Positions 2,573 to 27,936 of a stretch of 32,000 nt of DNA are shown in pieces; within the stretch, counting starts at the first letter, position 1, and the number at the start of each line of letters is the position of its first letter. The stretch is from Planctomycetales bacterium. GTDB taxonomy: Bacteria; 4484-113; JAFGCY01. The stretch lies in the NCBI GenBank assembly GCA_022646745.1, contig CP060262.1, forward strand, positions 150,001 through 182,000. The letters run 5' to 3'. The translations under genes were made by a program, and so were the position numbers. The notes under the pieces were generated by a model that worked only from the letters and a program-made list of their open reading frames with translations, was not told where the DNA came from and ran no database searches.

Positions 2573-2788
2573 TTAATCTTCTCTTTTCTCAAAGATCAAT
2601 TCCCATTCATATACTGCATCATTATCACCATCATGCTCAATGAAACCGATTAGATCTTCAAACGCATGGATTTCTCCTTGGTTAACAATTCGATCAACGC
2701 AACGATAACCTCGGCGATCACCTTCCTCTATGTACGTGCCGGCTTCCTGGACAGTTCCAGTAAACTCATACTTAAACTTAGTTGGCAT
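2573..2788 (-). CDS. Small acidic hypothetical protein (71 aa), third gene of the low-GC islet
   Basis: ATG preceded by AAGGAG (minus strand gttcAAGGAGtaggttATG). D/E-rich. Separated from the upstream gene by a 240-bp AT-rich spacer. Confidence 0.6.
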   Translation of the reverse strand: MPTKFKYEFTGTVQEAGTYIEEGDRRGYRCVDRIVNQGEIHAFEDLIGFIEHDGDNDAVYEWELIFEKRED

Positions 2789-3028
2789 AACCTACTCCTT
2801 GAACTAGTATAGACATTCAGAAATCACTATAACACATTTATTGTCCTACTACTTATTCTGATTCTCGAATCAACAGTTTACAACATTCACCGCAAGATTG
2901 TGAGATTCAGTGTGCTATCAATAAGAAATTAAGAAGATAATGGTCAATGCAACTAACCATGATTGACAACGCTGCCGTACAATTAGATTAATGATCTGAG
3001 CTTAATTGCTACAGAAAGTTCTGCAAGA

Positions 3029-5039: not shown

Positions 5040-5041
5040 AC

Positions 5042-6079: not shown

Positions 6080-6190
6080 TATAGACGGCAGAGCCGGGAG
6101 GCAGAAGGCAAAAGGCAGAAGGCCGGCCGCTGGCGCCAGTGATCTGACGCCGGATGCGGCGCTTGGGTTTTCAGGGGAATGCCGCAAGGC

Positions 6191-6337
6191 TCGCTGCACT
6201 CGGGCTGCGTTGAGCAGGGGTGGGATAGATTTATCTAACGCGAAGACGCGAAGGAAGATGAGCGGGAGATACCTTAGCGCCTCAGCGTCTTAGCGTTAAA
6301 AGAAGCAGAGATGCGATCTCGAACTGGCCCGTGCGGA
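6191..6337. repeat. ~150-bp intergenic repeat, tandem copy 1
   Basis: Aligns block by block with 6347-6500: tcgctgcactcggg, taacgcgaagacgcgaaggaagatgag, ttagcgcctcagcgtcttagcgttaaa, atgcgatctcgaactggccc. It contains an internal imperfect inverted repeat, taacgcgaagacgc / gcgtcttagcgtta. Confidence 0.75.
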
Positions 6338-6510: not shown

Positions 6511-7617
6511 TCATTGCGCGCTGTCGCTGCTGCTGTCCGCTGCCGGGGCCGGTGGAGCCTCCGCAGCAGCGGATCCAGCTTCCTGTGCCGGCAGTTCCTC
6601 CAGGCCGGGCAGTTCCTCGAGCCTGATGTTACCACCGCTGAGCTGTCCGACCTCCAGCTCGTGCCAGTTGTCGCTTTCGTCGAAGCTGCGCACCCGCACA
6701 ACGGCTGAGCCATGGCGAATGGCGAGCGGGGTCTGCACCACCAGCGGCCGGCCGCCGCCGGCGTACTCGAGGAAGATGGTCAGGCCACTGAGGCTGAAGC
6801 GCAGGCCCGGCAGGCTGGCATCGCCGAGCCTGAACTGGGCCGCCGGGTAGTTGCCGGCCTCAACCGGACGGGGGCCGAGGCGCAGCTGCTGTAGGCGCCC
6901 GCCGTTTTCCAGCTCCAGCCAGAAGGCGCGGTCGCGCCTGAGCAGCCAGGGCAGGAAGCCGCCGATGAACATCCCGGCGATGAAGCCCGCCAGCAGCATG
7001 CAGATCGAAAGCTGGAACATACTGCCGGACTCTACCGCCAAGCGGCTGAATGGTGCGAGCAGCAGCATGCCGAGCATCCCGCCGATGCTGCCGATCAGCA
7101 GGCCCCACTCACCGGGCAGGTTGTCAACCGCATGCGGCAGCACGACCCAGGCGCCGGCGGCGCAGGTGAAGAACAGCAGCATTTCTACGGGCAGGATCCC
7201 GCTGATGCCGGAGATGCCCTGCACCATGATGTAGAACAGCGCGAACACGCTCAGCAGCAGGCCCGAGATGAGGCTGTGGAGGATCGCCAGCGGCAGCATC
7301 CTGCGCAGTCCGAGGAAGGGGTTGCGGCGGATGCCCAGCAGCGCCTGCCAGACAAGGGACAGAAGCGGCAGCAGAACCAGCATGCCGCCCAGCAGGCCGA
7401 TGATCATGCTGGCGCCGACATAGAGCAGCAGGGTGCCGAACAGGTTGATGAGCTGCATGAGCCCGGGGGTGGCGCTGATGTTGTTGAAAACGGCGGCCAC
7501 ATAGCTGACCCCGTCCTGCAGCAGGCCGGCGGCAGCCACCAGCGGCAGGCTGGCCAGCAGCCAGGCGAGGCCGAAGCCGAGGATGGCACCAAGGCGCGTC
7601 AGGAAACCTTGCGGCAT
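6511..7617 (-). CDS. Polytopic membrane protein with a C-terminal soluble domain of about 110 aa and an acidic/Ala-Pro tail; function unknown
   Basis: The start is taken at ATG 7615-7617 (MPQGFLTRLGAILGFGLAWLL). There are about 6-7 hydrophobic helices, then RRDRAFWLELENGG...VVRVRSFDESDNWHELEV. No clear SD was seen. The 501-nt upstream extension of the listed ORF (to 8118) runs antisense into the lipoprotein gene and is rejected. Confidence 0.6.
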   Translation of the reverse strand: MPQGFLTRLGAILGFGLAWLLASLPLVAAAGLLQDGVSYVAAVFNNISATPGLMQLINLFGTLLLYVGASMIIGLLGGMLVLLPLLSLVWQALLGIRRNPFLGLRRMLPLAILHSLISGLLLSVFALFYIMVQGISGISGILPVEMLLFFTCAAGAWVVLPHAVDNLPGEWGLLIGSIGGMLGMLLLAPFSRLAVESGSMFQLSICMLLAGFIAGMFIGGFLPWLLRRDRAFWLELENGGRLQQLRLGPRPVEAGNYPAAQFRLGDASLPGLRFSLSGLTIFLEYAGGGRPLVVQTPLAIRHGSAVVRVRSFDESDNWHELEVGQLSGGNIRLEELPGLEELPAQEAGSAAAEAPPAPAADSSSDSAQ

Positions 7618-7737: not shown

Positions 7738-7746
7738 TGTTAAATT
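7738..7746 (+). promoter_or_regulatory. Extended -10-like motif TGTTAAATT upstream of lipoprotein paralog 1
   Basis: TGnTAnnTT lies 28 nt before ATG 7775. The same motif class sits at a similar distance before paralogs 2, 3 and 4. Confidence 0.35.
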
Positions 7747-7774: not shown

Positions 7775-10378
7775 ATGCACCGTACCCTTACCCTATTGAT
7801 TTTCATTGCACTGCTCGCGGCATCCTGCGGCGGCAGTGCCACTCCCGGAACTGTCCAGCAGGCGGCTGAAAGCCCGCTGACTGGCCAGCTGGCGGACAAC
7901 GGCAGACTGCCGGAGGACGGCCTGCTGCCCTGGGAAAGCCTCAACGAGAACGGTTTCGTGGATCCCGCGACGGCGCGGCGCTCGACGGCAATCAATGAGA
8001 ACAGTGAATTCTGGCGCGGAGTGGATGCCTGGCAGACCGCCGGCAGCACGACGGCCACGGGCCAGGCCCTGCGGCTGGACAGCGGCAGCGCGGGCAGCGG
8101 TGAGCGCAGCAGCGCCACCTACCGCATCCCGTTGGCCGGCGAGAACCCGGCGATCCTGTCCACCGACATCAACCTGCGCAGCCGCGACGACGCCAGCGCC
8201 AGTGATTTCTTCATCAGCATCGCCAACTTCAGCAGCGGACGCTGGGACTGGTTCGGCCCCTTCAGTGACGGCCGCATCCGGCTGCCGCTGGATGAAGCTG
8301 CGACCGGGAACTACATCTCCGGACTGGGCAACGCCTTCGTGAGCGTGGCGGCCTACAACGGCAGCAGCTTTGACATCGTCGGAATCTCGCTCAACCAGTT
8401 CGACCCGGGCGATGCGACGGCACCCCCCGCCCCGAGCGGACTGAGCCTGGCGGCAAGAGTCGGCGCGGTGGAAATGCAGTGGAACGGCGTGATCGCAGCT
8501 GACCTCGCCGGCTATGCGATTTACTACAGTGACAAGACCTTCGTGAATCCGGGCAGTGCCGGGGTGAAGCAGCTCAACTACCTTGAGGGCGGCACGCGCC
8601 ACCTGCTCAGCGGTGTGAGCGGGACGGTATTCGTGGCCGTCAGTGCACTGGACCTCAGCGGCAACGAGAGCGCGATCTCCAGCGTGGAGAGCACCGCCGT
8701 GATCGCCGGTGATGGCCCAGTGCTCGAGCTGCTGGCGGGCAGCACGGAGGGTATCGTCGGCCAGCCGATCTCCCTGACGGCCAGCGGCTCGCCAGCCTTT
8801 GACTGGGACCTCGATGGCGACGGCACCTTTGAGGTGACAGGCGATGTGTCCGGCAGCCAGATTGCCGACACCGGCAAGGCGGGCATCATCCGCCCGGCGG
8901 TGCGCGGCTCCGATGGTTCCACGGCGGTGGCACTCGGCGCGGTCAGCCTCATCGTGGCCAGCGACCTGCCCCCGGTGGCGATCCTGACCGCCAACCGCAC
9001 CAAGGGTGCGATCATCGACGGCGGCACAAGTCCGCTCAACGTGCAGTTTGACGGTGGCAACAGCTATGACGACGGTCCGACACTGGATTACTCCTTCAGC
9101 CCGCTCGGTGATGGCAACTACTCCACTCCCTCATCGAATGCCAACTACAACCAGGGCTACTCCAGCTCCGGGCAGTACACGGCGATGATGCGCATCGAGG
9201 ACAGCGCCGGCCAGCAGGCGCTGGCCCTGCTGCCGATCCGCGTGGAGCAGGTGACGGGATTCAAGAACTACGTCGTCTATCCCGGCTACAACAGCGGCAT
9301 CTACGGCTGCATGGCAGTGGTCGCCGGCCGCCCGGCGGTGCTGTTCCGCAAGTTCGGCCCGACCCCGGACGACGATGGCCTGTTCTACAGCCGTGCAATG
9401 GATGACGGCGGCAGGCTGTGGGGAGAGCCGGTCAAGCTGGCTGACAACAACAACTATGGCGACTACTTCGACCTTGCCGTGATCGCAGGCAACCCGGCGA
9501 TCGCCTGGTACAAGTTCAGCGCGAACAAGGTGTTCTACCGCCGCGCCAGCAGCAGCACCGGCCAGACCCTGTCCGACTGGAACAACCCGGGATTCGAGAT
9601 CTCCGGGGTACTCAGTGTCAGCGACGAGGTCAGGCTGCTGGAGGTTTCCGGCAACCCGGCCGTGATCTGGACCGACGGCTCTGACATCAAGTACGTGCGT
9701 GCGACCGGCGGCTCCGGTACCGGTGACTTCGCCGGGGACTGGACGGACGCGCCCTTCAACATCGTGGCCGCTTCCAACATCGGCCCACGACCGGACTTCG
9801 CCATGATTGCCGGCAACCCGGCGATCGCCTACTGGAACACCGGCACCAATGAGGCCTGCTATGTGAGGGCGACTTCCGCCAGCGGTTCCAGTGCACTGGA
9901 CTGGCCGGCCACTCCCGTGGTTGTGGATGGCAGCGACACCTGTACTGGACGTGTCAACCTGCTGCAGGTGAATGGCGCACCGGCGATCAGCTTCTTTGAC
10001 AGCGCCGACGATTCCGATATCCATTACACCCGTGCCACCACGGCAACCGGCACCGACATGGCAGACTGGCCGGTGGCGGTTTCCGTCAACCACGGGTTCG
10101 GCAGTGGCAATACCTGGCACGACCTGGCGATCATCTCCGGCAGGCCGGCGATCGCCTATGCTGACTACCGTTCCGGAGCAGCGACCTCGTACCGCCGGGC
10201 GAATGATGCCAACGGTTCGTCCTGGGGCGATCCGATGAGGGTCGGATCCAACATCGACTACAACGACTCGATGTACGAGCGGGTCGACCTGGAGGACCTG
10301 AACGGCTTCCCGGTAGTCTATAACCACTACCAGAGCTGGGACCGTGGGGTCGTCAGCGTGCTGGAAAGTGAGTTGTAG
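7775..10378 (+). CDS. Surface lipoprotein paralog 1: N-terminal beta-sandwich-like region, FN3, 2x PKD-like, 7-repeat GNPAIAY propeller
   Basis: ATG 7775 is preceded by AAGGAGAA. Signal peptide and lipobox MHRTLTLLIFIALLAASC. FN3-like APPAPSGLSLAARVGAVEMQWNGVIAADLAGYAIYY. PKD-like FDWDLDGDGTFEV and a second PKD-like segment. Seven ~45-aa repeats (AGRPAVLF, AGNPAIAW, SGNPAVIW, AGNPAIAY, NGAPAISF, SGRPAIAY, NGFPVVY). Confidence 0.85.
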   Translation: MHRTLTLLIFIALLAASCGGSATPGTVQQAAESPLTGQLADNGRLPEDGLLPWESLNENGFVDPATARRSTAINENSEFWRGVDAWQTAGSTTATGQALRLDSGSAGSGERSSATYRIPLAGENPAILSTDINLRSRDDASASDFFISIANFSSGRWDWFGPFSDGRIRLPLDEAATGNYISGLGNAFVSVAAYNGSSFDIVGISLNQFDPGDATAPPAPSGLSLAARVGAVEMQWNGVIAADLAGYAIYYSDKTFVNPGSAGVKQLNYLEGGTRHLLSGVSGTVFVAVSALDLSGNESAISSVESTAVIAGDGPVLELLAGSTEGIVGQPISLTASGSPAFDWDLDGDGTFEVTGDVSGSQIADTGKAGIIRPAVRGSDGSTAVALGAVSLIVASDLPPVAILTANRTKGAIIDGGTSPLNVQFDGGNSYDDGPTLDYSFSPLGDGNYSTPSSNANYNQGYSSSGQYTAMMRIEDSAGQQALALLPIRVEQVTGFKNYVVYPGYNSGIYGCMAVVAGRPAVLFRKFGPTPDDDGLFYSRAMDDGGRLWGEPVKLADNNNYGDYFDLAVIAGNPAIAWYKFSANKVFYRRASSSTGQTLSDWNNPGFEISGVLSVSDEVRLLEVSGNPAVIWTDGSDIKYVRATGGSGTGDFAGDWTDAPFNIVAASNIGPRPDFAMIAGNPAIAYWNTGTNEACYVRATSASGSSALDWPATPVVVDGSDTCTGRVNLLQVNGAPAISFFDSADDSDIHYTRATTATGTDMADWPVAVSVNHGFGSGNTWHDLAIISGRPAIAYADYRSGAATSYRRANDANGSSWGDPMRVGSNIDYNDSMYERVDLEDLNGFPVVYNHYQSWDRGVVSVLESEL

Positions 10379-10402
10379 CGACCGGTCCAGCTGGCAACAA
10401 CA

Positions 10403-10440
10403 GGCCGCTGTGGGAGTTCCCATGGCGGCCTTTTCATTTC
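10403..10440 (+). terminator. Rho-independent terminator after paralog 1
   Basis: Stem ggccgc..tggga / tccca..gcggcc followed by ttttcatttc. Confidence 0.65.
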
Positions 10441-10479
10441 CGGGGAGCTTCCCTCTGGCAGCTTTCCCGAACAGGCGCA

Positions 10480-10488
10480 TGCTACATT
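10480..10488 (+). promoter_or_regulatory. Extended -10-like motif TGCTACATT upstream of paralog 2
   Basis: Lies 29 nt before ATG 10518. It is identical to the 9-mer before paralog 4. Confidence 0.35.
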
Positions 10489-10517
10489 TGTAGCCAGTTA
10501 ATGCAGAGGAGACTCCT

Positions 10518-13109
10518 ATGCACCGCATCCTGATTCCCCTGATGATCATTGCCCTGTTCGCGGTTTCCTGCGGCGGCAATGCCACTCCCGTACCGGTCCA
10601 GCCCGGCCAGGGAGCACTGACCGACATGCCGGCTGACAACGGGGCAATTCCCGAGGACAGCCTGCTGCCCTGGGAAAGCCTCAACGAGAACGGATTCGTG
10701 GATCCCGCGACGGCGCGGCGCTCCACCGCAATCAACGAGAACAGTGAATTCTGGCGTGGCGTGGATGCCTGGCAGGTGGCCGGCAGCACAACAAATGTGG
10801 GCCAAGCGCTGCGGCTGGACAGCGGCAGTGCGGGCAGCGGTGAGCGCAGCAGCGCCACCTACCGCATCCCGCTCACGGGTGAGAACCCGGCGATCCTGTC
10901 TACCGACATCAACCTGCGCAAGCGCGACGACGACAGTGCCAGCGGGTTCTACATCAGCATCGCCAACTTCGAGACGGGCCGCTGGGACTGGTTCGGTCAG
11001 TACAGCGACGGCCGGATCAGGCTGTCGCTGTCCGAGGCTGCGACGGGGAACTACATCTCCGGACTGGGCAACGCCTTCGTCAGCGTAGTGGCCTACAACG
11101 GCAGCAGCTTCGACATCGTCGGCGTCTCACTCAACCAGTTCGACCCGGCTGATGCGACGGCACCGCCTGCCCCGAGCGGACTGAGCCTGGCGGCACGCGT
11201 CGGCGCGGTGGAAATGCAGTGGAACGGCGTGATCGCAGCTGACCTGGCCGGCTACGCGATCTACTACAGTGACAAGACATTCGTCAACCCGGGCAGTGCC
11301 GGTGTGAAGAAGCTGAATTACCTCGAGGGCGGCACGCGCCACCTGCTCAGCGGTGTGAGCGGGACGGTGTTCGTGGCGGTGTCCGCGGTGGACCTCAGCG
11401 GCAACGAGAGCGCGATCTCCAGCGTGGAGAGCACCGCCGTGATCGCCGGTGACGGCCCGGTGCTCGAGCTGCTGGCCGGCAGCACCGAGGGCATCGTCGG
11501 TGAGCCGATCACGCTGACAGCCAGCGGGTCCCCGGCCTTTGACTGGGACCTCGATGGCGACGGCACGTTTGAGGTGACCGGCGACGTGTCCGGCAGCCAG
11601 CTGGCTGACACCGGCAAGGCGGGCATCCTCCGCCCGGCGGTGCGCGGTTCCGACGGCGCTACGGCTGTGGCACTCGGCGCGGTAAGCCTGATCATCGCCC
11701 AGGACCTGCCGCCGGTGGCGGTGCTGACAGCCAACCGCCTGCGCGGCGCGATCATCAACGGCGAGACCAGCCCGCTGAGCGTGAACTTCAGTGCCGGCCA
11801 GAGTTATGACGACGGCCCGACGCTGGACTTCGCCTGGGCACTGACCGGTGATGCCAGCTTCGGCCCGGCCGGACCGGCTGACAGCAACTCCTACCAGTAT
11901 TCCAAGAGCGGCGTGTTCGTGGCGATGATCCGCGCCGAGGACAGCGCGGGCCAGGTGGCCTATGCCCAGCTGCCGATCAGCGTCGAGCAGGTGACGGGCT
12001 TCCGTGCATCCTTCCTGTGTGACAACCCGGCCGGCCTGTTCGGTTCACTGGCAATCGTGGACGGTCATCCAGCGGTGGCCTTCCGCCGCTTCGGCCCCGG
12101 CGCCGCACTGGACGGCCTGTTCTACAACCGTGCACTGGACAGCGAAGGCAAGCTCTGGGGCGAGCCGGTGCCACTCCAGACCCAGCCGAACTGGGGCGAC
12201 TTCGCTTGCCTGGCGGTGATCGCCGGCAACCCGGCGATCGCCTACAACAACGGCAACGTGCCCGGCATCTGCTACATCCGCGCCAGCTCCAGCACTGGCC
12301 AGACCCTGGCGGACTGGAACAATGCGCCTGTCGTGCTGACAACTCCGGCCTTCGCCTCCGAGGAGATCGAGCTCATCGACCTGAATGGCAACCCGGCGGT
12401 GGTCTGGTTCGACAGCGGTGACATCTGGTTCCAGCGTGCCACCTCCGCCGCCGGAACCGGTGACAACGCCGGTGACTGGGGTGACCCGGCCATTGAGATC
12501 TACAATGCCGGCAACGCCGATGTACGGCCGGATTTCAAGATCATTGACGGCAACCCGGCTGTGGCCTTCCGCCAGTCGGCCGCCAACCAGGCGATGTACC
12601 TGCGTGCCACCAGCAGCACCGGCGCCAGCGCGCTGGACTGGCCGGGCGTGCCAGTCGTGGTCAGTGCAGCTCATACCGTCACCGGGCGCGTCAACCTCGA
12701 GTTCGTCAGCGGCGCCCCGGCGGTCTCCTACTACGAAAGCGGCAACAGCCTGCGCTATACGCGGGCCAACACCAGCACCGGCTCAATTGCGGCCGACTGG
12801 CCGCTGTCAACGGTGATTGACGAGGGCTTCGGCCAGGGCACAACCTGGCATGACCTCGCGATGGTCGGCGGGAGGCCGGCGATCGCCTACGAGGACTTCC
12901 AGTCCGGCCAGCACACGAAGTACCGCCGGGCCAACAACTCGACCGGCAGCTCATGGGGTGAGGAATGGCATGTGGCCCCGCAGAATGACTGGCAGGACTC
13001 GGCCTACATGCGCATCGACCTGGAGGACCTGAACGGCTTCCCGGCGATCTACGTGCACCACCAGAACTTCGACCGGCCTTCGTTCTACACCTTCGACACT
13101 GAACTGTAG
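10518..13109 (+). CDS. Surface lipoprotein paralog 2 (same architecture as paralog 1)
   Basis: GAGGAG SD; MHRILIPLMIIALFAVSC lipobox. Nearly identical to paralog 1 at nucleotide level over about the first 1.2 kb. The second PKD-like segment and the propeller are divergent. Confidence 0.85.
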   Translation: MHRILIPLMIIALFAVSCGGNATPVPVQPGQGALTDMPADNGAIPEDSLLPWESLNENGFVDPATARRSTAINENSEFWRGVDAWQVAGSTTNVGQALRLDSGSAGSGERSSATYRIPLTGENPAILSTDINLRKRDDDSASGFYISIANFETGRWDWFGQYSDGRIRLSLSEAATGNYISGLGNAFVSVVAYNGSSFDIVGVSLNQFDPADATAPPAPSGLSLAARVGAVEMQWNGVIAADLAGYAIYYSDKTFVNPGSAGVKKLNYLEGGTRHLLSGVSGTVFVAVSAVDLSGNESAISSVESTAVIAGDGPVLELLAGSTEGIVGEPITLTASGSPAFDWDLDGDGTFEVTGDVSGSQLADTGKAGILRPAVRGSDGATAVALGAVSLIIAQDLPPVAVLTANRLRGAIINGETSPLSVNFSAGQSYDDGPTLDFAWALTGDASFGPAGPADSNSYQYSKSGVFVAMIRAEDSAGQVAYAQLPISVEQVTGFRASFLCDNPAGLFGSLAIVDGHPAVAFRRFGPGAALDGLFYNRALDSEGKLWGEPVPLQTQPNWGDFACLAVIAGNPAIAYNNGNVPGICYIRASSSTGQTLADWNNAPVVLTTPAFASEEIELIDLNGNPAVVWFDSGDIWFQRATSAAGTGDNAGDWGDPAIEIYNAGNADVRPDFKIIDGNPAVAFRQSAANQAMYLRATSSTGASALDWPGVPVVVSAAHTVTGRVNLEFVSGAPAVSYYESGNSLRYTRANTSTGSIAADWPLSTVIDEGFGQGTTWHDLAMVGGRPAIAYEDFQSGQHTKYRRANNSTGSSWGEEWHVAPQNDWQDSAYMRIDLEDLNGFPAIYVHHQNFDRPSFYTFDTEL

Positions 13110-13136
13110 TCCGGGCCATTGACCTGGCACACCAGG

Positions 13137-13176
13137 GCCGCCGTGGAACTTCTCCACGGCGGCTCTTTTCTGTTTC
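13137..13176 (+). terminator. Rho-independent terminator after paralog 2
   Basis: 11-bp stem gccgccgtgga / tccacggcggc, loop acttc, then tcttttctgttt. Confidence 0.75.
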
Positions 13177-13186
13177 GGCTGCACCA

Positions 13187-13195
13187 TGCTAAGTT
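13187..13195 (+). promoter_or_regulatory. Extended -10-like motif TGCTAAGTT upstream of paralog 3
   Basis: Lies 31 nt before ATG 13227, directly after the preceding terminator. Confidence 0.35.
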
Positions 13196-13226
13196 ATTGC
13201 AGGCTAACAAAGCACGGAGATCCGAC

Positions 13227-15791
13227 ATGCGCCCAATACTTATTGCCATGCTGACAGTCCTGCTTGCTTCCTGCACCGGCAGCAATCCCCAGACTATGGC
13301 GAAACCAGGCAGCAATCCGCTTGATGGAACAGCGCTGGCCGGATCCGGCCCAGTCCCGGATGATACCCTGCTGCCCTGGGAAGGGATCACTGCCGACGGC
13401 ATGGTTGATCCAGCCACCGGCCGGCGTTCCACCGCCATCAACGGAGACAGCGAATTCTGGCGCGGGGTGGACGCCTGGCAGACCGAGGGCAGTGCCTCGC
13501 CAGATGGCCAGGCCCTGGCTCTCAGCAGTGGTGACAGCGGCAGCGGCCAGCGCAGCCAGGCGACCTACCGCATTCCGCTGACGGGGGAGAACCCGGCGAT
13601 GCTGTCAACGGACCTGAACCTGCATCCGCGCAGTGACGGCAGCCAGAGCGAATACAGTATAGGCATCGCGAACTACAGCACGGGCCGCTGGGACTTCCAC
13701 GGCCCGTTCAGCGATGGACGCATCCGCCTGCCGATTGACGCGGCGGCGACGGGGGACTACATCTCCGGGCTTGGCAACTGCTACCTGAGCATAGTTGTCT
13801 ACAACGGCAGTGCGCTGGACATCGTCGGCGTGGCGCTGAACCAGCTGGACCCGGATGATACGAACGCACCTCCCGTACCGACCGGCCTTAGCCTGGCGGC
13901 GGTTGACGGCGGGCTGGAACTGCAGTGGAACAGCGTGCTGGCCGCCGACCTGGCGGGCTACGGTATCTACTGGAGCAACGCGGAATTCAGCGCGCTGGAC
14001 GAGGCAGGCGTGCGCAGCCTGCCCTACCTGGAAGGCAGTACCAGGCACGTGCTGGGCGGGCTCAGCGGACTGACATTCGTGGCGATCACCGCAATGGACC
14101 TGAATGGCAACGAAAGCGGATTCATCATGCTGGATGAAACGGCGGGCACGGGTGATGCCCCCGGCCTGTCACTGGAAGCCCAGGCCACGAGCGGCAGGAC
14201 CGGAGACAGCATCCAGCTGGCCGCCCAGGGGGCCGCGAGCTACGACTGGGACCTGGATGGCGACGGCATCTATGAGGTGACCGGCGACGTCGGCGGAGTG
14301 ATGCCGGCTGACACCGGCAAGGCTGGAATCATCAGGCCCGCGGTGCGCGGCACTGACGGCACAGCGGTCGCCCTGGAGGCGGTCTCACTGATCATCTCGC
14401 AGGACCTGCCGCCCGTTGCGATGCTGTCCACTGACAACGGTGAGGGCGTACTGTTCTACGGGGAGCTCACGCCGTTCAGCTGCAACCTCAGTGCAGCGGG
14501 AAGTTATGATGACGATGCCATCAGCGACTTTTCCTTCAGTCCGCTCGGTGACGGCAGCTTCAGCAGCAACGGCACGGACCCGGGCTTCGCCGCCCAGTAC
14601 GGCAAGCCCGGGCTGTTCTATGCAAGCCTGCGGGTGGAGGACAGTGCCGGCCAGCAGGCCCAGGCAGCTGTGCTGCAGCGGGTGCGCCAGGTCAGCGGCT
14701 TTGAGGCGCGCACCTACAACAACAACGCCAACACCGGACAGATGGCGCATATCGCGGTCGTGGCGGGCAATCCCGCACTGGTCTACAACTCCGCGCTCGG
14801 CCCGGACCTTGACGGCGTCATCTACCAGCGTGCGCTGGACCCGCAGGGGCATATCTGGGGTGATCCCATCGTCCTGCTTGACAATGCCGGGGATGGCGAC
14901 CTGCCGATGCTAGAGATCATCAACGGCAACCCGGCGATCACCTTCCACGACCTCGTTTCCGGGGACCTGATGTACGCGCGTGCCACCAGCAGCACAGGAC
15001 AGAACAAGGTGGACTGGCCGGAAGCGATATCAGTTGACATCGGGCCCGTGGCGCGCAAGCCCGTGCTGAGGGAGGTTGATGGCCAGCCGGCGATAGCCTA
15101 TGTCAGCGGATCAAAGCTGTTCTACGTACGGGCCACCGGCAACAGCGGCAGTTCGGCCGGGGACTGGTCCGTGCCACGCATGGAACTGTACTCGGCCCCC
15201 GGGCTGCAGTGGCTGCCGGAGATGAAGGTGGTGGCCGGCAACCCGGCGATCGGGTTCATCAACCTGGATGACAACGAAGCCCTGTACATGCGGTCCACCA
15301 CGGCGGACGGCGCAAGTGGACTGGACTGGCCGGCGGTGCCGGTGGTCGTCAGCGGTGCCGACCCGGCATCCTCGGTCATCGACCTGGCGGTGATTGACGG
15401 CAACCCGGCGATGACCTACCTTGACCTGAACAGCCTCGGCCTGGTCTACACGCGCTCCAACACCGCGACCGGGACCAATGCGGCGGACTGGCCCAATGCG
15501 ATCGTGATCGACGCTGGCAACCTGCAGGGTGCTGACTTCCAATGCCTGGCGGAGGTTGGCGGCTATCCCGTGGTGGCCTACACCGACACCCAGTTCGGCG
15601 TCCGCACGAATGTCCGTCGCGGGCTGACAACGACCGGCAGCAGCTGGGGACCGGAACTGACGGTCGCCAATCCGGACGATTCAGTCTACTACTGGATCGA
15701 ACTGATCGACCTGCACGGCCTGCCTGCAGTGGCAGTGTACAACACCAGCCGGAGCCAGGGCATGTTCAGCACACCCGGGCTCTACGACTGA
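13227..15791 (+). CDS. Surface lipoprotein paralog 3 (same architecture, most divergent propeller)
   Basis: ATG 13227 (MRPILIAMLTVLLASC) is preceded by ACGGAGA. The listed ORF start at 13119 would read through the terminator hairpin. Its FN3 and PKD-like segments resemble those of paralog 4. Repeats: AGNPALVY, NGNPAITF, DGQPAIAY, AGNPAIGF, DGNPAMTY, GGYPVVAY, HGLPAVAV. Confidence 0.85.
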   Translation: MRPILIAMLTVLLASCTGSNPQTMAKPGSNPLDGTALAGSGPVPDDTLLPWEGITADGMVDPATGRRSTAINGDSEFWRGVDAWQTEGSASPDGQALALSSGDSGSGQRSQATYRIPLTGENPAMLSTDLNLHPRSDGSQSEYSIGIANYSTGRWDFHGPFSDGRIRLPIDAAATGDYISGLGNCYLSIVVYNGSALDIVGVALNQLDPDDTNAPPVPTGLSLAAVDGGLELQWNSVLAADLAGYGIYWSNAEFSALDEAGVRSLPYLEGSTRHVLGGLSGLTFVAITAMDLNGNESGFIMLDETAGTGDAPGLSLEAQATSGRTGDSIQLAAQGAASYDWDLDGDGIYEVTGDVGGVMPADTGKAGIIRPAVRGTDGTAVALEAVSLIISQDLPPVAMLSTDNGEGVLFYGELTPFSCNLSAAGSYDDDAISDFSFSPLGDGSFSSNGTDPGFAAQYGKPGLFYASLRVEDSAGQQAQAAVLQRVRQVSGFEARTYNNNANTGQMAHIAVVAGNPALVYNSALGPDLDGVIYQRALDPQGHIWGDPIVLLDNAGDGDLPMLEIINGNPAITFHDLVSGDLMYARATSSTGQNKVDWPEAISVDIGPVARKPVLREVDGQPAIAYVSGSKLFYVRATGNSGSSAGDWSVPRMELYSAPGLQWLPEMKVVAGNPAIGFINLDDNEALYMRSTTADGASGLDWPAVPVVVSGADPASSVIDLAVIDGNPAMTYLDLNSLGLVYTRSNTATGTNAADWPNAIVIDAGNLQGADFQCLAEVGGYPVVAYTDTQFGVRTNVRRGLTTTGSSWGPELTVANPDDSVYYWIELIDLHGLPAVAVYNTSRSQGMFSTPGLYD

Positions 15792-15800
15792 GGCCTTAGC

Positions 15801-16271
15801 TCAGGCGATGGCAACCATCAGGTCGCAGTGCAGCTTGCCGCCCTGCTCATCGAGGAAGCCGGCGGGGTAATGCTCGAGCGCGACCCAATGCGGGTCGTGG
15901 TGCAGGCCGGCATCCAGCAGCCGGCGGCTGAAGATGTCACCCATCGCGCGCGGCAGCCTGTGCGGGTCGTCATGGAAATGCCAGACGGCGTAGCGCTTCG
16001 AGGGGATGGCGATGCTGTCCAGCCCGGCCGGGATTGCGTCACCGGGCATCAGCCGGACCGCCGTCCAGTAGTGGATGCCCTTGCCACCGGGCATCGGGAT
16101 GCTGATCCCGTAACGGTCCCGTGGTGCATCGGTGCGGCCGAGGAATGCGTTGAGGCGCTGCCAGAGCTCGCTGATCCCCTGGCAGTCGTAGTTCGGGCAG
16201 TCCAGCGCCAGCCCGACCGCCGTCCATTCTCCCATTGTCACGATGCGAGGTTTCAGTGCGACTGTGTCCAT
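15801..16271 (-). CDS. GyrI-like / AraC-effector-binding-fold small-molecule-binding protein (paralog 1)
   Basis: 156 aa, ATG preceded by AGGGAG. Length and pattern (WTAVGL...W..L...., YW.AV....G...P.GLD...IP...YAVW.FH) are typical of GyrI-like/Cass2-like domains. It is clearly paralogous to 19124..19597 and convergent to paralog 3, with only a 9-nt gap. Confidence 0.6.
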   Translation of the reverse strand: MDTVALKPRIVTMGEWTAVGLALDCPNYDCQGISELWQRLNAFLGRTDAPRDRYGISIPMPGGKGIHYWTAVRLMPGDAIPAGLDSIAIPSKRYAVWHFHDDPHRLPRAMGDIFSRRLLDAGLHHDPHWVALEHYPAGFLDEQGGKLHCDLMVAIA

Positions 16272-16400
16272 GGCTACACTCCCTGCAACCCGGCCGGACA
16301 GCCTCCCTGCGCCCGAAACCGGACGCTGTGACCTAACGACAGTGTAACGCCGCGAGAAGGATCCTGCCGGAAAGTGAGTGCCGGGTGGGCACCGGTCAGC

Positions 16401-16409
16401 TGCTACATT
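16401..16409 (+). promoter_or_regulatory. Extended -10-like motif TGCTACATT upstream of paralog 4
   Basis: Lies 42 nt before ATG 16452, in the divergent intergenic region shared with the GyrI-like gene. Confidence 0.35.
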
Positions 16410-16451
16410 AATTCGGGGTGATGCCCGAAAGCGGGATTCCCGGAGGCGATT

Positions 16452-19061
16452 ATGAGCAGGATCCTACTTGTTTGTTTCTTACTCTGCGGCCTGGCAGCTT
16501 GCTCCGGCGGTGGCGTGGTACGCAGCGGACCACTGCCCGCTGAGGGCCAGCCGCAGGCTCCAGTCGCAGCCGGAATCGCCGGACAGGCAATCCCGCTTGA
16601 TGTGTTGCAGGCATGGGAACAGCTTGATGAAAACGGATTCATTGAGCCGCAGGATGCACGGCTGTCCTCAGCAATCAATGGTGACAGTGAGTTCTGGCGT
16701 GGTGCTGATGCCTGGCAGACCAGTGGCGACAGCAGCCCGAGTGGACAGGCGATGCACCTTGGCAGCGGGTCAGCAGGCAGTGGGCAGCGCAGCAGTGCTA
16801 CCTACCGCATCCCGCTGGCCGGTGAGAACCCAGCAACACTGTCCACGGATGTCAACCTGCAGCTGAAGGATGACGGCAGCCCGGCTGATTTCCTGCTCGG
16901 AATAGCCAACTATTCGACGGGTCGCTGGGACTGGTTCGGACCATTCACCGACGGAAGGGTCAGGTTGCCCCTGTCGGAAGCGGCCACAGGAGATTACATT
17001 TCACCGCTTGGCAACGCATTTGTGAACATCATGGCCTACAGCGGCAGCAGCCTTGACATCGTCGGTATTGCCCTGAACCAGCTGGACCCGGTGGATACCA
17101 ACGCCCCGCCGAGCCCGACAGGCCTCAGCCTGTCCCCGGTGAATGGTGGGCTGGAACTGCAGTGGAACAGCGTGCTCGCGGGTGACCTCGCAGGCTATCG
17201 CATCTACTGGCGCAATTCCGCTATCAGCAATCTCACTGCGGCCGGTGTGCAGAAGCTCAACTACATCGAAGGGGATACACGGCACGTGCTCACGGGTCTC
17301 AAGAGCCATACCTGGGTGGCTGTGACGGCGGTGGATCTCAACGGCAACGAAAGCGGCTTCGTCCTGCAGGACGCGGTCCCGCTTGCCGGAGCGGCTCCCG
17401 TGCTGAGCGTCAAGCCCGACAGCAGCGCCGGAATCGTCGGCACGCTGATCCTGCTGACGGCGAACGGCGCGGACAGCTATGACTGGGACCTCGACGGCAA
17501 CGGCGTGTACGATGTGACCGGCGACACCTCGGGCTCGCAGATCGCGGACACCGGCAAGGCCGGGATCATCCGTCCGGCGGTGCGCGCATCAAGCGGCGGT
17601 ACGGCGGTGGCGCTCGGTGCCGTCAGCCTGATCGTCTCCCAGGACCTGCCTCCGGTTGCCATCCTGACAGCCAACCGCACCGGCGGGGCAATCATCGACG
17701 GCGAGGTGAATCCGCTGAATGTACAGTTCGACGGTGGCAACAGCTATGACGACGGCCCGACACTGGACTTCTCATTCAGCCCACTGGGCAACGGCAGCTT
17801 CTCCGCACCGAGTTCGAATGCCAACTACAACCAGGGCTATTCCAGCTCCGGCCAGTACACGGCGATGATGCGTGTGGAGGACAGCAGCGGCCAGCAGGCA
17901 TTCGCGCTGCTGCCGATCCGTGTCGAGCAGGTGACCGGCTTCCAGAACTACGTCGTCTGTCCCGGCTTCAACAACGGCATCTATGGCTGCATGGCGGTGG
18001 TGGCCGGCCGGCCGGCGGTGCTGTTTCGCAAGTTCGGTCCAGGCCCGGAAGGCGATGGGCTGTTCTACAGCCGCTCGCTGGATGACGGTGGCAGGCTGTG
18101 GGGCGAGCCGGTCATGCTGGCTGACAATGCCAACTACGGCGACTACTTCGATCTGGCGGTGATCGCGGGCAACCCGGCGATCGCCTGGTACAAGTTCAGT
18201 GAAAACAAGGTCCACTACCGCCGCGCAACGAGCAGCACCGGACAGACCCCGTCAGACTGGAGCAACCCCGGGTTCGCGATTTCCGACGTGCTCAGTGTCA
18301 CTGAAGAGGTCAGGCTGCTTGAGGTATCCGGCAATCCGGCCGTGATGTGGACCGACACCACGAACATCAAATATGTCCGTGCCACGGGCGGCAACGGCAC
18401 CGGCGACTTTGCCGGAGACTGGACGGATGCGCCCTTCAACATTGTTTCCGCCTCCAGTGTCGGAATCCTCCCGGACTTCGCCATGATCGCCGGCAACCCG
18501 GCCATCGCATACAGGAAGTTCGACACCAGTGATGCCGCATACCTGCGTGCCACAACCAGCACAGGCGCCAGCGCGCTGGACTGGCCTGCCACGCCGGTGA
18601 TCGTCAACGGCAGTGACAAATGCAGCGGACGCCTAAACCTGCTGCAGGTGAACGGTGCACCGGCGATCAGCTTCTTTGACAGCTCCGATGACAGTGATAT
18701 CCAGTACACCCGGGCAATCACCTCGACAGGAACTGACATGGCTGACTGGCCAACGGCCGTTTCCCTGAGCCATGGTTTCAACAACGGCTACGACTGGCAT
18801 GACCTGGCAATCATCTCCGGCAGGCCGGCGATCGCCTATTCTGACTACCGCAACAGCAGCGTTGCCACTACATACCGGCGAGCCAATGATGCCAACGGTT
18901 CCTCATGGGGCGATCCGATGCGGGTCGGGTCCAATACGGACATCAATGACAACATGCATGAGCGGATTGACCTGGAAGACCTGAATGGCTTCCCTGTTGT
19001 CTACAACCACAACGCAAGCTGGGACCGCGGGGTTGTCAGCGTACTGGAGACCGAACTGTAG
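16452..19061 (+). CDS. Surface lipoprotein paralog 4 (same architecture; the 3' half is close to paralog 1)
   Basis: GGAGG SD; MSRILLVCFLLCGLAAC lipobox. From about SGSQIADTGKAGIIRPAVR onward it is highly similar to paralog 1, including all seven propeller repeats. Confidence 0.85.
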   Translation: MSRILLVCFLLCGLAACSGGGVVRSGPLPAEGQPQAPVAAGIAGQAIPLDVLQAWEQLDENGFIEPQDARLSSAINGDSEFWRGADAWQTSGDSSPSGQAMHLGSGSAGSGQRSSATYRIPLAGENPATLSTDVNLQLKDDGSPADFLLGIANYSTGRWDWFGPFTDGRVRLPLSEAATGDYISPLGNAFVNIMAYSGSSLDIVGIALNQLDPVDTNAPPSPTGLSLSPVNGGLELQWNSVLAGDLAGYRIYWRNSAISNLTAAGVQKLNYIEGDTRHVLTGLKSHTWVAVTAVDLNGNESGFVLQDAVPLAGAAPVLSVKPDSSAGIVGTLILLTANGADSYDWDLDGNGVYDVTGDTSGSQIADTGKAGIIRPAVRASSGGTAVALGAVSLIVSQDLPPVAILTANRTGGAIIDGEVNPLNVQFDGGNSYDDGPTLDFSFSPLGNGSFSAPSSNANYNQGYSSSGQYTAMMRVEDSSGQQAFALLPIRVEQVTGFQNYVVCPGFNNGIYGCMAVVAGRPAVLFRKFGPGPEGDGLFYSRSLDDGGRLWGEPVMLADNANYGDYFDLAVIAGNPAIAWYKFSENKVHYRRATSSTGQTPSDWSNPGFAISDVLSVTEEVRLLEVSGNPAVMWTDTTNIKYVRATGGNGTGDFAGDWTDAPFNIVSASSVGILPDFAMIAGNPAIAYRKFDTSDAAYLRATTSTGASALDWPATPVIVNGSDKCSGRLNLLQVNGAPAISFFDSSDDSDIQYTRAITSTGTDMADWPTAVSLSHGFNNGYDWHDLAIISGRPAIAYSDYRNSSVATTYRRANDANGSSWGDPMRVGSNTDINDNMHERIDLEDLNGFPVVYNHNASWDRGVVSVLETEL

Positions 19062-19086
19062 CAGGGCATCCAAACTGTCGACAGAG

Positions 19087-19115
19087 GGCCGCCGTGGAGA
19101 TGCTGCATGGCGGCC
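19087..19115. terminator. Stem-loop between the convergent paralog 4 and GyrI-like genes (probable bidirectional terminator)
   Basis: ggccgccgtg / catggcggcc stem. Its sequence is related to the hairpins after paralogs 1 and 2. It is followed by attccatttc. Confidence 0.55.
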
Positions 19116-19123: not shown

Positions 19124-19597
19124 TCAGCTGATGGCGATCCACAGGTCGAGCCGGAACCTGCCGGCGGCCTCATCATGCCAGTCCGGGCCATAGTGCTCCA
19201 TGCTCATCCAGGGCAAGGCTGAAGCCAGGCCCGCGCCCTTGAGGCGGTTGTTGTAGATGTCCTGGAAGTGAACAGGCAGCTGGCTCGGGTGATCATGGAA
19301 GTGCCAGACGGCGAAGCGGCTGGCGGGGAAGTTGACTGTGTCGAGCCCGGCGGGAGCTGCCTGGCCTGGGCGCAGCTTCATCACGGCCCAGTAGCGGAAA
19401 CCCGGTGCATTCTCCGGCAGCGGCAGGGAGATTCCGAAGATGCCGACATGCTCGGTGCCTCCATATATATAAGGGGAGAATTTCTCCCATACTGCGGCGA
19501 TTCCCGAGCCATCGAAGCCGGGGCAGTCGATCATCAGGCCCGCGCCCGTCCAGGCAGGCAGTTCCTCAATCCGGTGGCCCTGTGCTGCTGCATCCAT
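19124..19597 (-). CDS. GyrI-like small-molecule-binding protein (paralog 2)
   Basis: The start is taken at ATG 19595-19597 (MDAAAQGHRIEELPAW), preceded by AGGAG. It aligns along its length with 15801..16271 (…FRYWAVMKLRPGQAAPAGLDTVNFPASRFAVWHFHDHPSQLP…). Confidence 0.6.
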   Translation of the reverse strand: MDAAAQGHRIEELPAWTGAGLMIDCPGFDGSGIAAVWEKFSPYIYGGTEHVGIFGISLPLPENAPGFRYWAVMKLRPGQAAPAGLDTVNFPASRFAVWHFHDHPSQLPVHFQDIYNNRLKGAGLASALPWMSMEHYGPDWHDEAAGRFRLDLWIAIS

Positions 19598-19615
19598 GTC
19601 AGTACTCCTGTGTAG

Positions 19616-19668
19616 GGCAGCACTTCCTCGTGCTGCCAATCCATGGCAGGGCACACAGGCCCTGCCAT
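19616..19668 (-). other. Two tandem GC-rich stem-loops between the gcdH stop and the GyrI-like start
   Basis: ggcagcac-ttcctc-gtgctgcc (19616-19637) and atggcaggg-cacacag-ccctgccat (19643-19668). Neither has a clear U-tract. Confidence 0.4.
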
Positions 19669-19691
19669 ACCGCTGAAGCGTGTAGCTCCCC

Positions 19692-20882
19692 CTAGCCCTC
19701 ATACGCCGCGAGCCCGGTCAGGGCTTCGCCGAGGATCAGGTGGTGGATGTCATGCGTGCCCTCGTAGGTGTAGACGCTTTCGAGGTTGTTGGCATGGCGC
19801 ATCACGTGGCTCTCCAGCATGATGCCCATCCCGCCCATGATCGTGCGGGCTGTGCGTGCGATGCGCAGTGCGGTGTTCACGTTGTCACGCTTGGCGAGGC
19901 TGACCTGCACCGGCGTGGCTTCACCGGCATTGCGCAGCTGCCCGAGCCGCCAGGCCACAAGGCGGCCCTTCACGATGTCCGTTGCCATTTCGCTGAGCTT
20001 GAGCTGCTGCAGCTGGAAGCCGGCGATCGGCCTGCCGAACTGCTCGCGCTCCAGGCCGTACCTGAGCGCGGTCTCAAAGGTGAACATCGCCGAACCCATC
20101 GCCCCCCAGGCGATGCCGTAGCGCGCCTGGTTGAGGCAGGACAGCGGGCCCTTCAGGCCCTGCACATTGGGGAGCATGTTCTCCTCGGGCACGAAGACGT
20201 CCTTCAGGAACAGTTCACTCGTCACGCTGGCGCGGAGGCTGAGCTTCTTTTTGTACTCCGCGGTGCTGAATCCCGCGGTGCCCTTCTCCACGAGGAAGCC
20301 GCGGATACTCTTGGAGTCGCCGTCGCCCACCTTCGCCCAGATGACAGCGACGTCAGCCAGGCAGCCATTGGTGATCCAGGCCTTGGCACCGTTCAGGCGG
20401 TAGCCGCCCTCCACCGGGGTGGCAATCGTTTCCATCCCGCCGGGGTTGGAGCCGTGGTTCGGCTCCGTCAGGCCGAAGCAGCCGATCGCCTTGCCGCTGG
20501 CCAGTTGCGGCAGCCAGCGGTCCTTCTGGGCCTCGCTGCCGAATGCGTAGATCGGGTACATCACGAGCCCGCTCTGTACGGACACGAAGCTGCGCAGGCC
20601 GCTGTCGCCATATTCCAGCGCCTGGTTGATCAGGCCGTAGGCGGTGTAACTGGCCTCGGCACAGCCGTACTTCTCCGGCAGGGTCGGGCCGAACACGCCC
20701 AGTTCCGCCAGCTCGGGCAAGAGCTCCAGCGGGAAGGTGCCTGCCTCGTAATGCTCCTCGATCAGCGGCAGGAAGCGCTCCTTCACCCAGTCGAGCACGG
20801 AGTCATGGATCAGGCGCTCCTCGTCAGAGAAGAGCTCCATGATGCGGTAGATGTCGTGGGGGTCGGTCTTGGGCTGCGGCAT
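19692..20882 (-). CDS. gcdH: Glutaryl-CoA dehydrogenase (acyl-CoA dehydrogenase family)
   Basis: 396 aa. CFGLTEPNHGSNPGGMET and the C-terminal YTYEGTHDIHHLILGEALTG are hallmark GCDH-type blocks. The antisense ORF 19740..20900 is rejected. The exact start is uncertain because there is no clear SD at 20882. Confidence 0.88.
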   Translation of the reverse strand: MPQPKTDPHDIYRIMELFSDEERLIHDSVLDWVKERFLPLIEEHYEAGTFPLELLPELAELGVFGPTLPEKYGCAEASYTAYGLINQALEYGDSGLRSFVSVQSGLVMYPIYAFGSEAQKDRWLPQLASGKAIGCFGLTEPNHGSNPGGMETIATPVEGGYRLNGAKAWITNGCLADVAVIWAKVGDGDSKSIRGFLVEKGTAGFSTAEYKKKLSLRASVTSELFLKDVFVPEENMLPNVQGLKGPLSCLNQARYGIAWGAMGSAMFTFETALRYGLEREQFGRPIAGFQLQQLKLSEMATDIVKGRLVAWRLGQLRNAGEATPVQVSLAKRDNVNTALRIARTARTIMGGMGIMLESHVMRHANNLESVYTYEGTHDIHHLILGEALTGLAAYEG

Positions 20883-23886: not shown

Positions 23887-24078
23887 CTCAACCCTCAAAC
23901 AATCAGATTTGCCCAGAGTCAGGGCAGAAAATCCAACTGCGCGCGAAACGACTATAGCACCGATTTGTCCAGCATGTCAATAATAGGGAAATTCTTTCCC
24001 CATTCCATCAACATACCCTTGCGGCACCTGTTGATAACCCCCCGCCCGCCGTCAAGGCCGGGGGCCGGTTTACAAGGT

Positions 24079-25029: not shown

Positions 25030-25030
25030 G

Positions 25031-25894: not shown

Positions 25895-25897
25895 TTC

Positions 25898-27850: not shown

Positions 27851-27936
27851 TTTGAACCCCGTTTGCGCGCAAAGGACGCGCCCTTTGATCTGTGTGGCAT
27901 CACCGCCACACTCCTCCGCCTCGTTTTCTTATCGAA

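Follow-up and report, generated by a model that had tools for sequence, protein, structure and literature searches.

The locus examined here raises the question of what a bacterium does with four neighbouring copies of one large lipoprotein gene, and of how these copies came to differ. The genes, designated A to D, lie between nucleotides 7775 and 19061 of a 32,000-nucleotide stretch of Planctomycetales bacterium DNA (contig CP060262.1, positions 150,001 to 182,000; hereafter the window; ~63% GC). The reading favoured here, with moderate confidence, is that the array encodes lipid-anchored, non-enzymatic binding proteins of the cell envelope, each built of a constant base, a spacer and an exchangeable head. 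An earlier note on the same DNA, made from the letters alone, had described four same-strand paralogs of ~860 aa, each with a signal peptide and a lipobox Cys; this description is accurate, as the open reading frames (ORFs) encode 854-869 aa and the products are 50-72% identical:

7775..10378, + strand: paralog A, 867-aa lipoprotein (ORF, alignment, AlphaFold2 model)
10518..13109, + strand: paralog B, 863 aa, architecture like that of A, propeller at about 11988-13106 (ORF, alignment)
13227..15791, + strand: paralog C, 854 aa, propeller at about 14691-15788 (ORF, alignment, Pfam PKD match)
16452..19061, + strand: paralog D, 869 aa, propeller at about 17931-19058 (ORF, alignment)

Starts of A-D were chosen from Shine-Dalgarno sequences, which precede the start codon by 7-8 nt in all four genes, together with gene calls in independent assemblies. 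The proteins are alignable end to end, with B, C and D respectively 69%, 50% and 72% identical to A; C stands furthest from the rest, at about 50% identity. Each begins with a hydrophobic signal peptide and a lipobox (LAAS-C in A, FAVS-C in B, LLAS-C in C and LAA-C in D) that conforms to the PROSITE PS51257-type pattern of bacterial lipoproteins, and conservation of the lipobox Cys is 90% or more in 38 full-length homologs. The N-terminal motifs quoted in the earlier note as shared by the copies are present in the A-D alignment; its picture of an uninterrupted tandem array needs amendment, since the four paralogs are adjacent but a minus-strand GyrI-like gene (15801-16271) lies between C and D. 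The possibility that the array is an assembly error made from fewer copies is excluded, because the gene order recurs in independent assemblies and the paralogs are too diverged to represent a collapsed or expanded repeat (the longest exact tract common to paralogs is 64 nt). The same order is found on a 61-kb contig of a metagenome-assembled genome (MAG; L015) and on contigs L016 and L002 from other samples, and the array is identical to one in accession GCA_020440665.1. The propeller region of B (~372 aa) is identical to that of P0004 (H7A35_00660), an 863-aa protein encoded on a 4.11-Mb contig.

The domain architecture was read from a model of A predicted by AlphaFold2 from an alignment of 38 sequences (mean predicted local distance difference test score, pLDDT, 86), which divides the gene as follows:

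7775-7828, + strand: signal peptide and lipobox Cys18 (from the sequence)
to about 7906, + strand: tether, disordered in the model, residues 17-42 (~25 aa)
7907-8410, + strand: N-terminal domain (N-domain) resembling a carbohydrate-binding module (CBM), beta-sandwich in the model, residues about 79-208
8411-8710, + strand: FN3-like domain, sandwich in the model, residues about 221-308
8711-8968, + strand: first PKD-like domain (PKD1) with the motif DWDLDGDG, Ig-like/PKD-like sandwich in the model, residues about 318-395
8969-9250, + strand: second PKD domain (PKD2), sandwich in the model, residues about 410-492, Pfam PKD_4
9251-10375, + strand: 7-bladed propeller in the model, residues 493-867

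The combination of an FN3-like module, two PKD-like modules and a 7-bladed propeller proposed earlier is thus reproduced as folds in the model, but only PKD2, and only that of A and C, passes a Pfam cut-off. PKD2 of A matches PKD_4 (PF18911) with 29.6 bits (cut-off 27) and that of C matches PKD (PF00801) with 25.8 bits (cut-off 23.5), while those of B and D stay under the cut-off (16.7 and 22.0); compared with PDB sequences, a PKD2 profile finds collagenase PKD domains only. PKD1 has no Pfam match in any of A-D and is assigned from its fold and a WD(L)DGDG-type motif, which looks like the Ca2+-binding loop of a PKD-like domain missed by Pfam. That motif, DWDLDGDG (of DxDxDG type; 8801-8824 in A), is invariant in A-D and is followed by the conserved stretch ADTGKAGIIRPAVRG. 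The FN3-like domain, which gives no Pfam fn3 match at E ≤ 1, is likewise assigned, provisionally, from fold and motif: the region is a beta-sandwich in the model, FN3-string ectodomains are among the top fold matches of the whole model, and NCBI lists one homolog under the name of an FN3 protein.

The propeller consists of seven four-stranded blades, with the N-terminal strand (493-500) closing the last blade in the model, and its repeat period is 52-55 aa rather than the ~45 aa first proposed. The N-domain, when modelled alone (pLDDT 88.8, pTM 0.86), forms a galactose-binding-like jelly roll whose best PDB folds are Cry-toxin domain III, CBM6, CBM86 and CBM35 (E 3e-5 to 1e-3, TM 0.5-0.6; for CBM6 2cdp, E 1.7e-4, TMt 0.54); it has no sequence match to any solved CBM. 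For the propeller the best PDB fold is the 7-bladed, non-enzymatic LGI1 EPTP domain (5y2z_B; TM 0.67-0.69, 9% identity). When the whole model was compared with PDB and viral structures by Foldseek, generic FN3/Ig strings dominated, and matches specific to the propeller were confined to LGI1 EPTP and a phage 'BNR repeat domain protein'; they permit no functional assignment. Sequence searches add little to this. Pfam on A-D at E ≤ 1 returns weak PKD matches, one sub-threshold DUF3558 match (in B) and nothing else; NCBIfam returns two far-sub-threshold matches, in B only; PDB sequences contain no significant match to the profile of the N-domain or to that of the propeller (best E 0.1-0.5); and 13 family propellers give no credible Pfam match even at E ≤ 1. 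As these searches yielded no family for either N-domain or propeller, the view that the architecture belongs to no named family stands, and no domain search assigned the proteins to an enzyme family.

The evidence for a constant base and an exchangeable head comes from the uneven divergence of the copies. Per-domain identities were computed on the four copies of the window plus the five in a syntenic array (L001, of MAG AC1.30), and range from 63-94% for the N-domain to 30-87% for PKD2 and 27-81% for the propeller. Gene A is a chimera of a B-like N-terminal half and a D-like half comprising PKD2 and propeller. Its first ~400 codons have 85-93% nucleotide identity to B and the remainder 77-87% nucleotide identity to D, and PKD2 and propeller of D share 81-87% identity with their counterparts in A. 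When a maximum chi-square test was applied to the A/B/D triplet, the change was placed at about nt 8981 (residue about 403). Of the informative sites to its left, 314 group A with B and 50 group A with D; to its right the corresponding numbers are 109 and 349. The chi-square of 317 was reached in 0 of 1000 permutations. The resulting feature is:

8960..9000, + strand: recombination breakpoint in A, within the invariant linker DLPPVA that joins PKD1 to PKD2

A similar mosaic is seen in L001, where copies x2, x3 and x5 have N-domains that are 92-94% mutually identical, whereas the x5 propeller is 33% identical to those of x2 and x3. Together the two mosaics imply that either the N-modules have been homogenised or the PKD2-propeller heads have been exchanged; under either scenario PKD2 plus propeller acts as one unit.

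Within the head, variation is concentrated in particular loops. Strands and loops of the propeller were assigned from the DSSP string of the model, and among the four paralogs only 3% of B-C loop positions and 10% of D-A loop positions are invariant, compared with 50% in A-B turns and 47% in C-D loops; column entropies in the 38-sequence alignment agree (2.8-2.95 bits for B-C/D-A, 1.4-1.85 bits for A-B/C-D). By established topology, a propeller with four-stranded blades has its B-C and D-A loops on the same face, the one where ligands usually bind. Conversely, every propeller residue conserved at 70% or more in the 38 homologs is found within strands A-C, the A-B turns or the C-D loops and forms part of a repeat scaffold motif, L…G-x-P-A … Y-x-R-A … G … W, with none in the B-C/D-A loops. 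Since the conserved residues are all scaffold, no family-wide catalytic constellation is visible.

This distribution bears directly on an enzymatic alternative. A domain order of CBM-like, FN3, PKD and propeller is typical of carbohydrate-active enzymes (CAZymes), and A-D could be secreted or anchored enzymes in which the propeller is a glycoside hydrolase or lyase (of sialidase, GH74 or lambda-carrageenase type), the N-domain is a CBM and the substrates differ by paralog. Propellers with Asp-boxes (BNR repeats) are those of sialidases, GH74 enzymes and Ycf48, seven-bladed versions among them, and in the array propellers the C-D loop of every blade carries either RAxDxxGxxW or a longer S/T-x-T-G-x(3-5)-D-W version, a hairpin-type motif that recalls the Asp-box SxDxGxTW. 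A few relatives also have weak BNR_2 or Beta-prop_CGLA Pfam matches, and the phage 'BNR repeat domain protein' is among the fold matches. However, the C-D loop motif resembles an Asp-box without matching one, there being one extra residue between D and G; with this spacing, and with no BNR match at E ≤ 1 in the window proteins or the 13 family propellers, membership in the BNR/Asp-box group was rejected. The window propellers match no Pfam enzyme family even at E ≤ 1, the PDB profile search reaches a sialidase only at E about 0.4, and the PDB fold closest to the propeller, that of LGI1 EPTP, is non-enzymatic. Outside the repeat scaffold the 38 homologs have no conserved acidic or other polar propeller residue, the face on which propeller active sites usually lie is the most variable part, and the window contains no CAZyme or sugar-transport neighbours. 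An enzymatic role for the array is for these reasons considered unlikely.

The same comparisons were used to ask how the copies are maintained. For the N-module, ratios of nonsynonymous to synonymous divergence (dN/dS, Nei-Gojobori) lie at 0.08-0.25, and close propeller pairs have 0.15-0.23, which indicates that close copies are under purifying selection and thus are functional genes. Distant pairs have dN/dS of 0.6-0.9 with dS near saturation, and were for that reason rejected as evidence of positive selection.

Expression signals suggest that the copies are individually transcribed. The motif TGCTAMRTT, of the TGCTACATT type and similar to an extended -10 element, occurs four times in the window compared with 0.42 expected, and three of these occurrences sit 30-51 nt before the starts of B, C and D; the same motif is found upstream of most copies in L001 and in a further array, L021. 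The associated features are:

7738..7746, + strand: variant TGTTAAATT of the extended -10-like motif, 29 nt before the A start (read from the sequence)
10480..10488, + strand: promoter-like motif TGCTACATT upstream of B (motif count)
13187..13195, + strand: promoter-like motif TGCTAAGTT upstream of C (motif count)
16401..16409, + strand: promoter-like motif TGCTACATT upstream of D (motif count)
10402..10441, + strand: intrinsic terminator-like hairpin, 13-bp stem and T-run, after A (hairpin search)
13134..13176, + strand: intrinsic terminator-like hairpin, 14-bp stem and T-run, after B (hairpin search)
19085..19115, strand not assigned: related GC-rich hairpin (repeat I2) between D and the convergent GyrI-like gene (repeat search)

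The recurrence of the motif suggests that a promoter was duplicated together with each lipoprotein gene, and each copy appears to be its own predicted transcription unit. This organization is hard to reconcile with phase or antigenic variation, or with phage-receptor decoys, in which one copy would be expressed and the others would be donor cassettes. Gene conversion between copies is evident from the mosaic A and the homogenised N-modules, and copies turn over rapidly between strains, as such a system would predict; but all copies are complete ORFs with signal peptide, ribosome-binding site, promoter-like motif and terminator, the exact tracts they share do not exceed 64 nt, and independent assemblies from several samples are identical in sequence. 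No invertible-promoter repeats and no recombinase were found in the window, and simple-sequence tracts were not noted in the 5' ends and intergenic regions read, no dedicated tandem-repeat scan having been run. The array was accordingly not classed as phase-variable cassettes (promoter-flanking inverted repeats and a recombinase match are absent, and all copies are complete), and we regard this explanation as highly improbable.

A surface coat or S-layer-like lattice, with the paralogs as antigenically different coats, would also account for large lipid-anchored proteins, which are compatible with such a role, and for a locus that is hypervariable between strains; S-layer proteins and Ig-like strings are indeed among the whole-model Foldseek matches. 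These matches are generic, however (TM ≤ 0.2), self-assembly is without support, and the locus seems to maintain several heads together, all of them with a promoter-like motif of their own, instead of a single coat gene being expressed. A coat function is therefore judged very unlikely.

Returning to the favoured reading of a binding protein with constant base and exchangeable head, the following arrangement is proposed. The proteins would be lipid-anchored in the cell envelope and most likely surface-exposed. A base, the jelly-roll domain similar to CBM6 and Cry domain III, would sit next to the membrane after the acylated Cys and a tether of ~25 aa, and would probably bind a partner that does not vary, whether a constituent of the cell's own envelope or a common glycan. 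A stalk or spacer would be formed by the FN3-like and PKD1-like domains, and the distal head by PKD2 plus the 7-bladed propeller, on one face of which the copy-specific B-C/D-A loops would provide the likely ligand-binding surface and set specificity. The repertoire would arise by tandem duplication and by recombination at the PKD1-PKD2 linker, whereby heads are exchanged or bases homogenised, with copies turning over between strains. Each copy would be transcribed separately from the extended -10-like motif upstream of it to the hairpin terminator downstream.

Several points weigh against this arrangement. Surface exposure is a presumption to which nothing in the gene context points, and the likeness of the N-domain to CBMs is one of modelled fold alone, at TM about 0.5. 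The assignment of loops to faces likewise follows from predicted secondary structure and general propeller topology rather than from inspected coordinates, and single paralogs may have active sites particular to them. The neighbours point to no ligand, as the window has no TonB-dependent transporter, SusC/D pair, CAZyme or riboswitch. Finally, positive selection is not demonstrated, all gene-wide dN/dS values being below 1. The diversified binding repertoire suggested in the earlier note, for which dN/dS per domain had been proposed as a check, is upheld in part: variation in the B-C/D-A loops, head exchange and copy turnover favour it, whereas the ratios, below 1 throughout, do not.

The wider family was surveyed to learn which part of the protein defines it. 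Close homologs are all hypothetical proteins of uncultured bacteria (named 'bacterium' or 'Planctomycetales bacterium') from activated sludge, wastewater and Zodletone spring. A hidden Markov model (HMM) scan over 1.84 billion cluster representatives (50%-identity clusters) returned 6178 proteins at E ≤ 1e-30, though giant multi-PKD proteins inflate this figure; the best 150 all have E < 1e-188, and most of these align over profile positions about 6-495 (the N-module) and differ in the C-terminal part. A word-indexed homolog search with the N-domain profile gave only two matches and added no information. Among 291 related proteins retrieved, the N-domain is present in 177 and is always N-terminal (start residue median 52, maximum 108); 99 of the 177 carry the present type of propeller and 78 carry other C-terminal regions, while a further 57 of the 291 have the propeller without the N-domain. 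A lipobox that fits the regular expression occurs in 119 of the 152 N-domain proteins whose N-terminus is intact. As for the C-terminal regions, 46 sampled N-module relatives included 11 with a PQQ_2/BamB-like propeller, three with a BNR_2-like one and one with an FGE-sulfatase domain. The propeller alone occurs in 500-650 aa proteins of other phyla, some with sorting domains of the type IX secretion system and one annotated as 'H-type lectin'. Judged from these comparisons, the family-defining element is the putatively membrane-proximal N-module of the lipoprotein, the apparent carrier of different propeller heads.

The relatives with PQQ_2/BamB-type propellers, annotated as BamB by their sources, raise the alternative that A-D are periplasm-facing outer-membrane lipoproteins with a BamB-like role in scaffolding or assembly, perhaps together with the adjacent MoxR ATPase and membrane protein described below. 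The presence of a secretin indicates that the organism is diderm, as this would require, and the block of MoxR, membrane protein and array is kept in the three lineages where MoxR was recovered (a fourth, L005, shows the membrane protein only). Against this, the window proteins have no PQQ_2 match and seven blades rather than eight, distant arrays (L006, L008) have no MoxR nearby, and four or five fast-diverging, head-swapped tandem copies are not expected of a housekeeping assembly factor; a five-domain stalk would, moreover, seem long for a periplasmic protein. We consider the BamB-like explanation quite unlikely. BamB/PQQ proteins resemble the array in being propeller lipoproteins, and by the relatives just named, but the array propellers stand on a base and stalk of ~490 aa and are multi-copy and hypervariable; with no PF13360 match and seven blades in the model, A-D were not assigned to BamB/PQQ_2.

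Comparison with other characterized systems gives analogues rather than homologs. In Bacteroidota, surface glycan-binding proteins of the SGBP-B and SusE/SusF kind are lipidated and have a flexible tether and Ig/PKD spacers that hold a distal binding module, in an architecture that varies between strains (PMC7974029). The array shares with these N-terminal lipidation, a tether, a beads-on-a-string layout, PKD/Ig spacers and CBM-like beta-sandwiches; it differs in lineage, in having no SusC/SusD pair or polysaccharide utilization locus, and in that its CBM-like domain would be membrane-proximal, with a 7-bladed propeller as distal module and heads exchanged in tandem. Lacking a SusC/SusD neighbour, the array was not counted among SusE/F-type proteins; no TonB-dependent receptor or SusD family member was found in the scanned window ORFs or is annotated among the called genes of L001 and L021. 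Bacteroides BtuG, a propeller, and BtuH2, a globular domain at the tip of a PKD stalk, are surface lipoproteins that capture a scarce ligand, vitamin B12, and whose paralogs differ in how they combine PKD, propeller and binding modules (PMC8941943). The likeness is that of a surface propeller or PKD-stalk lipoprotein used as a high-affinity capture device, but no sequence similarity was detected, the domain order is different and there is no btuB neighbour; membership was rejected because the window contains neither a BtuB-type neighbour nor, in an Rfam scan, a cobalamin riboswitch. The best structural matches, LGI1 EPTP for the propeller and, at the head of the whole-model search, the ectodomains of the Sevenless/ROS1 receptors (FN3 strings with propellers), are ligand-binding and non-enzymatic, but as they are eukaryotic and share ~9% identity the relationship would be analogy or very remote homology only.

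A literature search found such analogues and no description of the family. The array is thus of a known kind, that of paralogous multi-domain envelope lipoproteins with Ig-like stalks; new with respect to the curated libraries and literature searched are the architecture, two unannotated domains, the fixed, predicted membrane-proximal CBM-like domain and the hinge-defined exchange of heads. A large protein family (at least 150 cluster representatives at E < 1e-188) is undescribed by curated resources; it is amplified to at least eight copies per genome in uncultured activated-sludge bacteria. If the heads bind ligands, these genes probably set what such organisms adhere to or scavenge. Both the N-domain and the propeller of ~54-aa period are well suited to become Pfam entries of their own and subjects of structural and functional study, and the locus is a clean natural case of domain-level recombination in a tandem array, with the breakpoint at a conserved linker, that should be useful in studies of how binding repertoires evolve.

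The genes that flank the array, or interrupt it, are:

5042..6199, - strand: MoxR-type AAA+ ATPase (AAA_3; Pfam), part of the conserved upstream block, 94% identical to its L001 counterpart
6511..7617, - strand: 368-aa multi-pass membrane protein, divergent to the array and beside it in every close relative examined
15801..16271, - strand: GyrI-like/Cass2 gene, 156 aa, between C and D (domain match)
19124..19702, - strand: second GyrI-like/Cass2 paralog, after D, in the conserved downstream flank (domain match)

The two GyrI-like paralogs, of the effector-binding type, one after C and one after D, are 40% identical, and L001 has just one, which suggests that a lipoprotein gene and a GyrI-like gene were duplicated as one unit. 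The 660-bp gap between C and D, which contains the first of them, holds no family remnants by tblastn, and no tRNA gene, Rfam family or recombinase was found in the window. Downstream, the GyrI-like gene is followed by an acyl-CoA dehydrogenase gene. L001 has flanks of the window type around five paralogs; in L021, a third lineage, MoxR and the membrane protein precede four paralogs and then gatB; and in L005, a fourth and short contig, the membrane protein adjoins at least two copies. More distant family members occur in AC1.30 as tandem pairs or triplets (L006 and L008, without MoxR nearby), giving at least 10 members in that genome, and the 4.11-Mb contig that encodes P0004 has at least four further N-module clusters besides its array.

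Between the window and L001 the flanks and the array differ in their degree of divergence. MoxR and acyl-CoA dehydrogenase are 94% identical (dS 0.27 and 0.36), while the best-matching array copies have dN 0.13-0.33 and dS 0.7-1.3, and the membrane protein is 48% identical with dN/dS 0.66. The array and the membrane protein facing it are a divergence hot spot without 1:1 orthologs. The membrane protein, for which neither Pfam nor the PDB has a match, possibly co-evolves with the array as its partner. It has a C-terminal beta-rich region, and its pace of divergence is about that of the array.

A bolder proposal is that MoxR, the fast-evolving membrane protein and the array form one undescribed envelope recognition system, in which the base would dock to a dedicated partner and the PKD1-PKD2 hinge would shuffle heads; by analogy with the swapping of phage receptor-binding proteins or of polymorphic toxin tips, it might serve strain-specific recognition of, for example, kin, prey or particles. 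This is offered as a speculation with a small chance of being correct. The window MoxR has a weak match to PF20030 bpMoxR (5e-13, compared with 8.6e-63 for AAA_3) and adjoins propeller genes, a likeness to the MoxR-vWA-beta-propeller ternary conflict systems (Kaur et al., 2020, PMC7159879). No von Willebrand A (vWA) domain is present among the neighbours of the array in the window, and no effector-type Pfam domain was detected in the array lipoproteins. In this the array lipoproteins contrast with the propeller components of ternary systems. With no vWA component, and with propeller proteins that are exported lipoproteins, the locus was not assigned to these systems.

The reading frame that ends at 708 had been taken for a divergent fifth member of the family. 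Only its propeller supports this, being homologous to the array propellers (hhalign probability 96.7%, E 4.6e-10), whereas N-domain, FN3 and PKD modules are all absent from the complete gene, of which the window contains:

1..708, + strand: 3' end of a distinct lipoprotein gene that encodes 578 aa (complete at L018 3694-5430, - strand)

The protein has a lipobox (LLAG-C) and, at residues about 96-144, a dockerin-like pair of Ca-binding repeats that match Pfam Dockerin_1 with E 1e-3, under the cut-off. A dockerin-like module is unusual on a lipoprotein from a diderm MAG.

Two further regions of the window were noted. At 21376-31213 (- strand) lies a cluster resembling type IV pilus and type II secretion systems, with an 840-aa secretin, PilM, a PilN-like protein, T2SSF and T2SSE; no specific link between this cluster and the array was found, and the secretin has an N-terminal half that is long, acidic and of low complexity. 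Directly downstream of MoxR, positions 2500-5040 form a low-GC island (36-42% GC against a background of 63%) with three ORFs:

2573-2788, - strand: 71 aa (ORF list)
3029-4051, - strand: 340 aa (ORF list)
4026-5039, - strand: 337 aa (ORF list)

None of the three has a Pfam or PADLOC match, and a PADLOC scan of MoxR likewise gave nothing significant. The island is missing from the syntenic L001 and present on the independent contig L018, and is probably a horizontally acquired insert.

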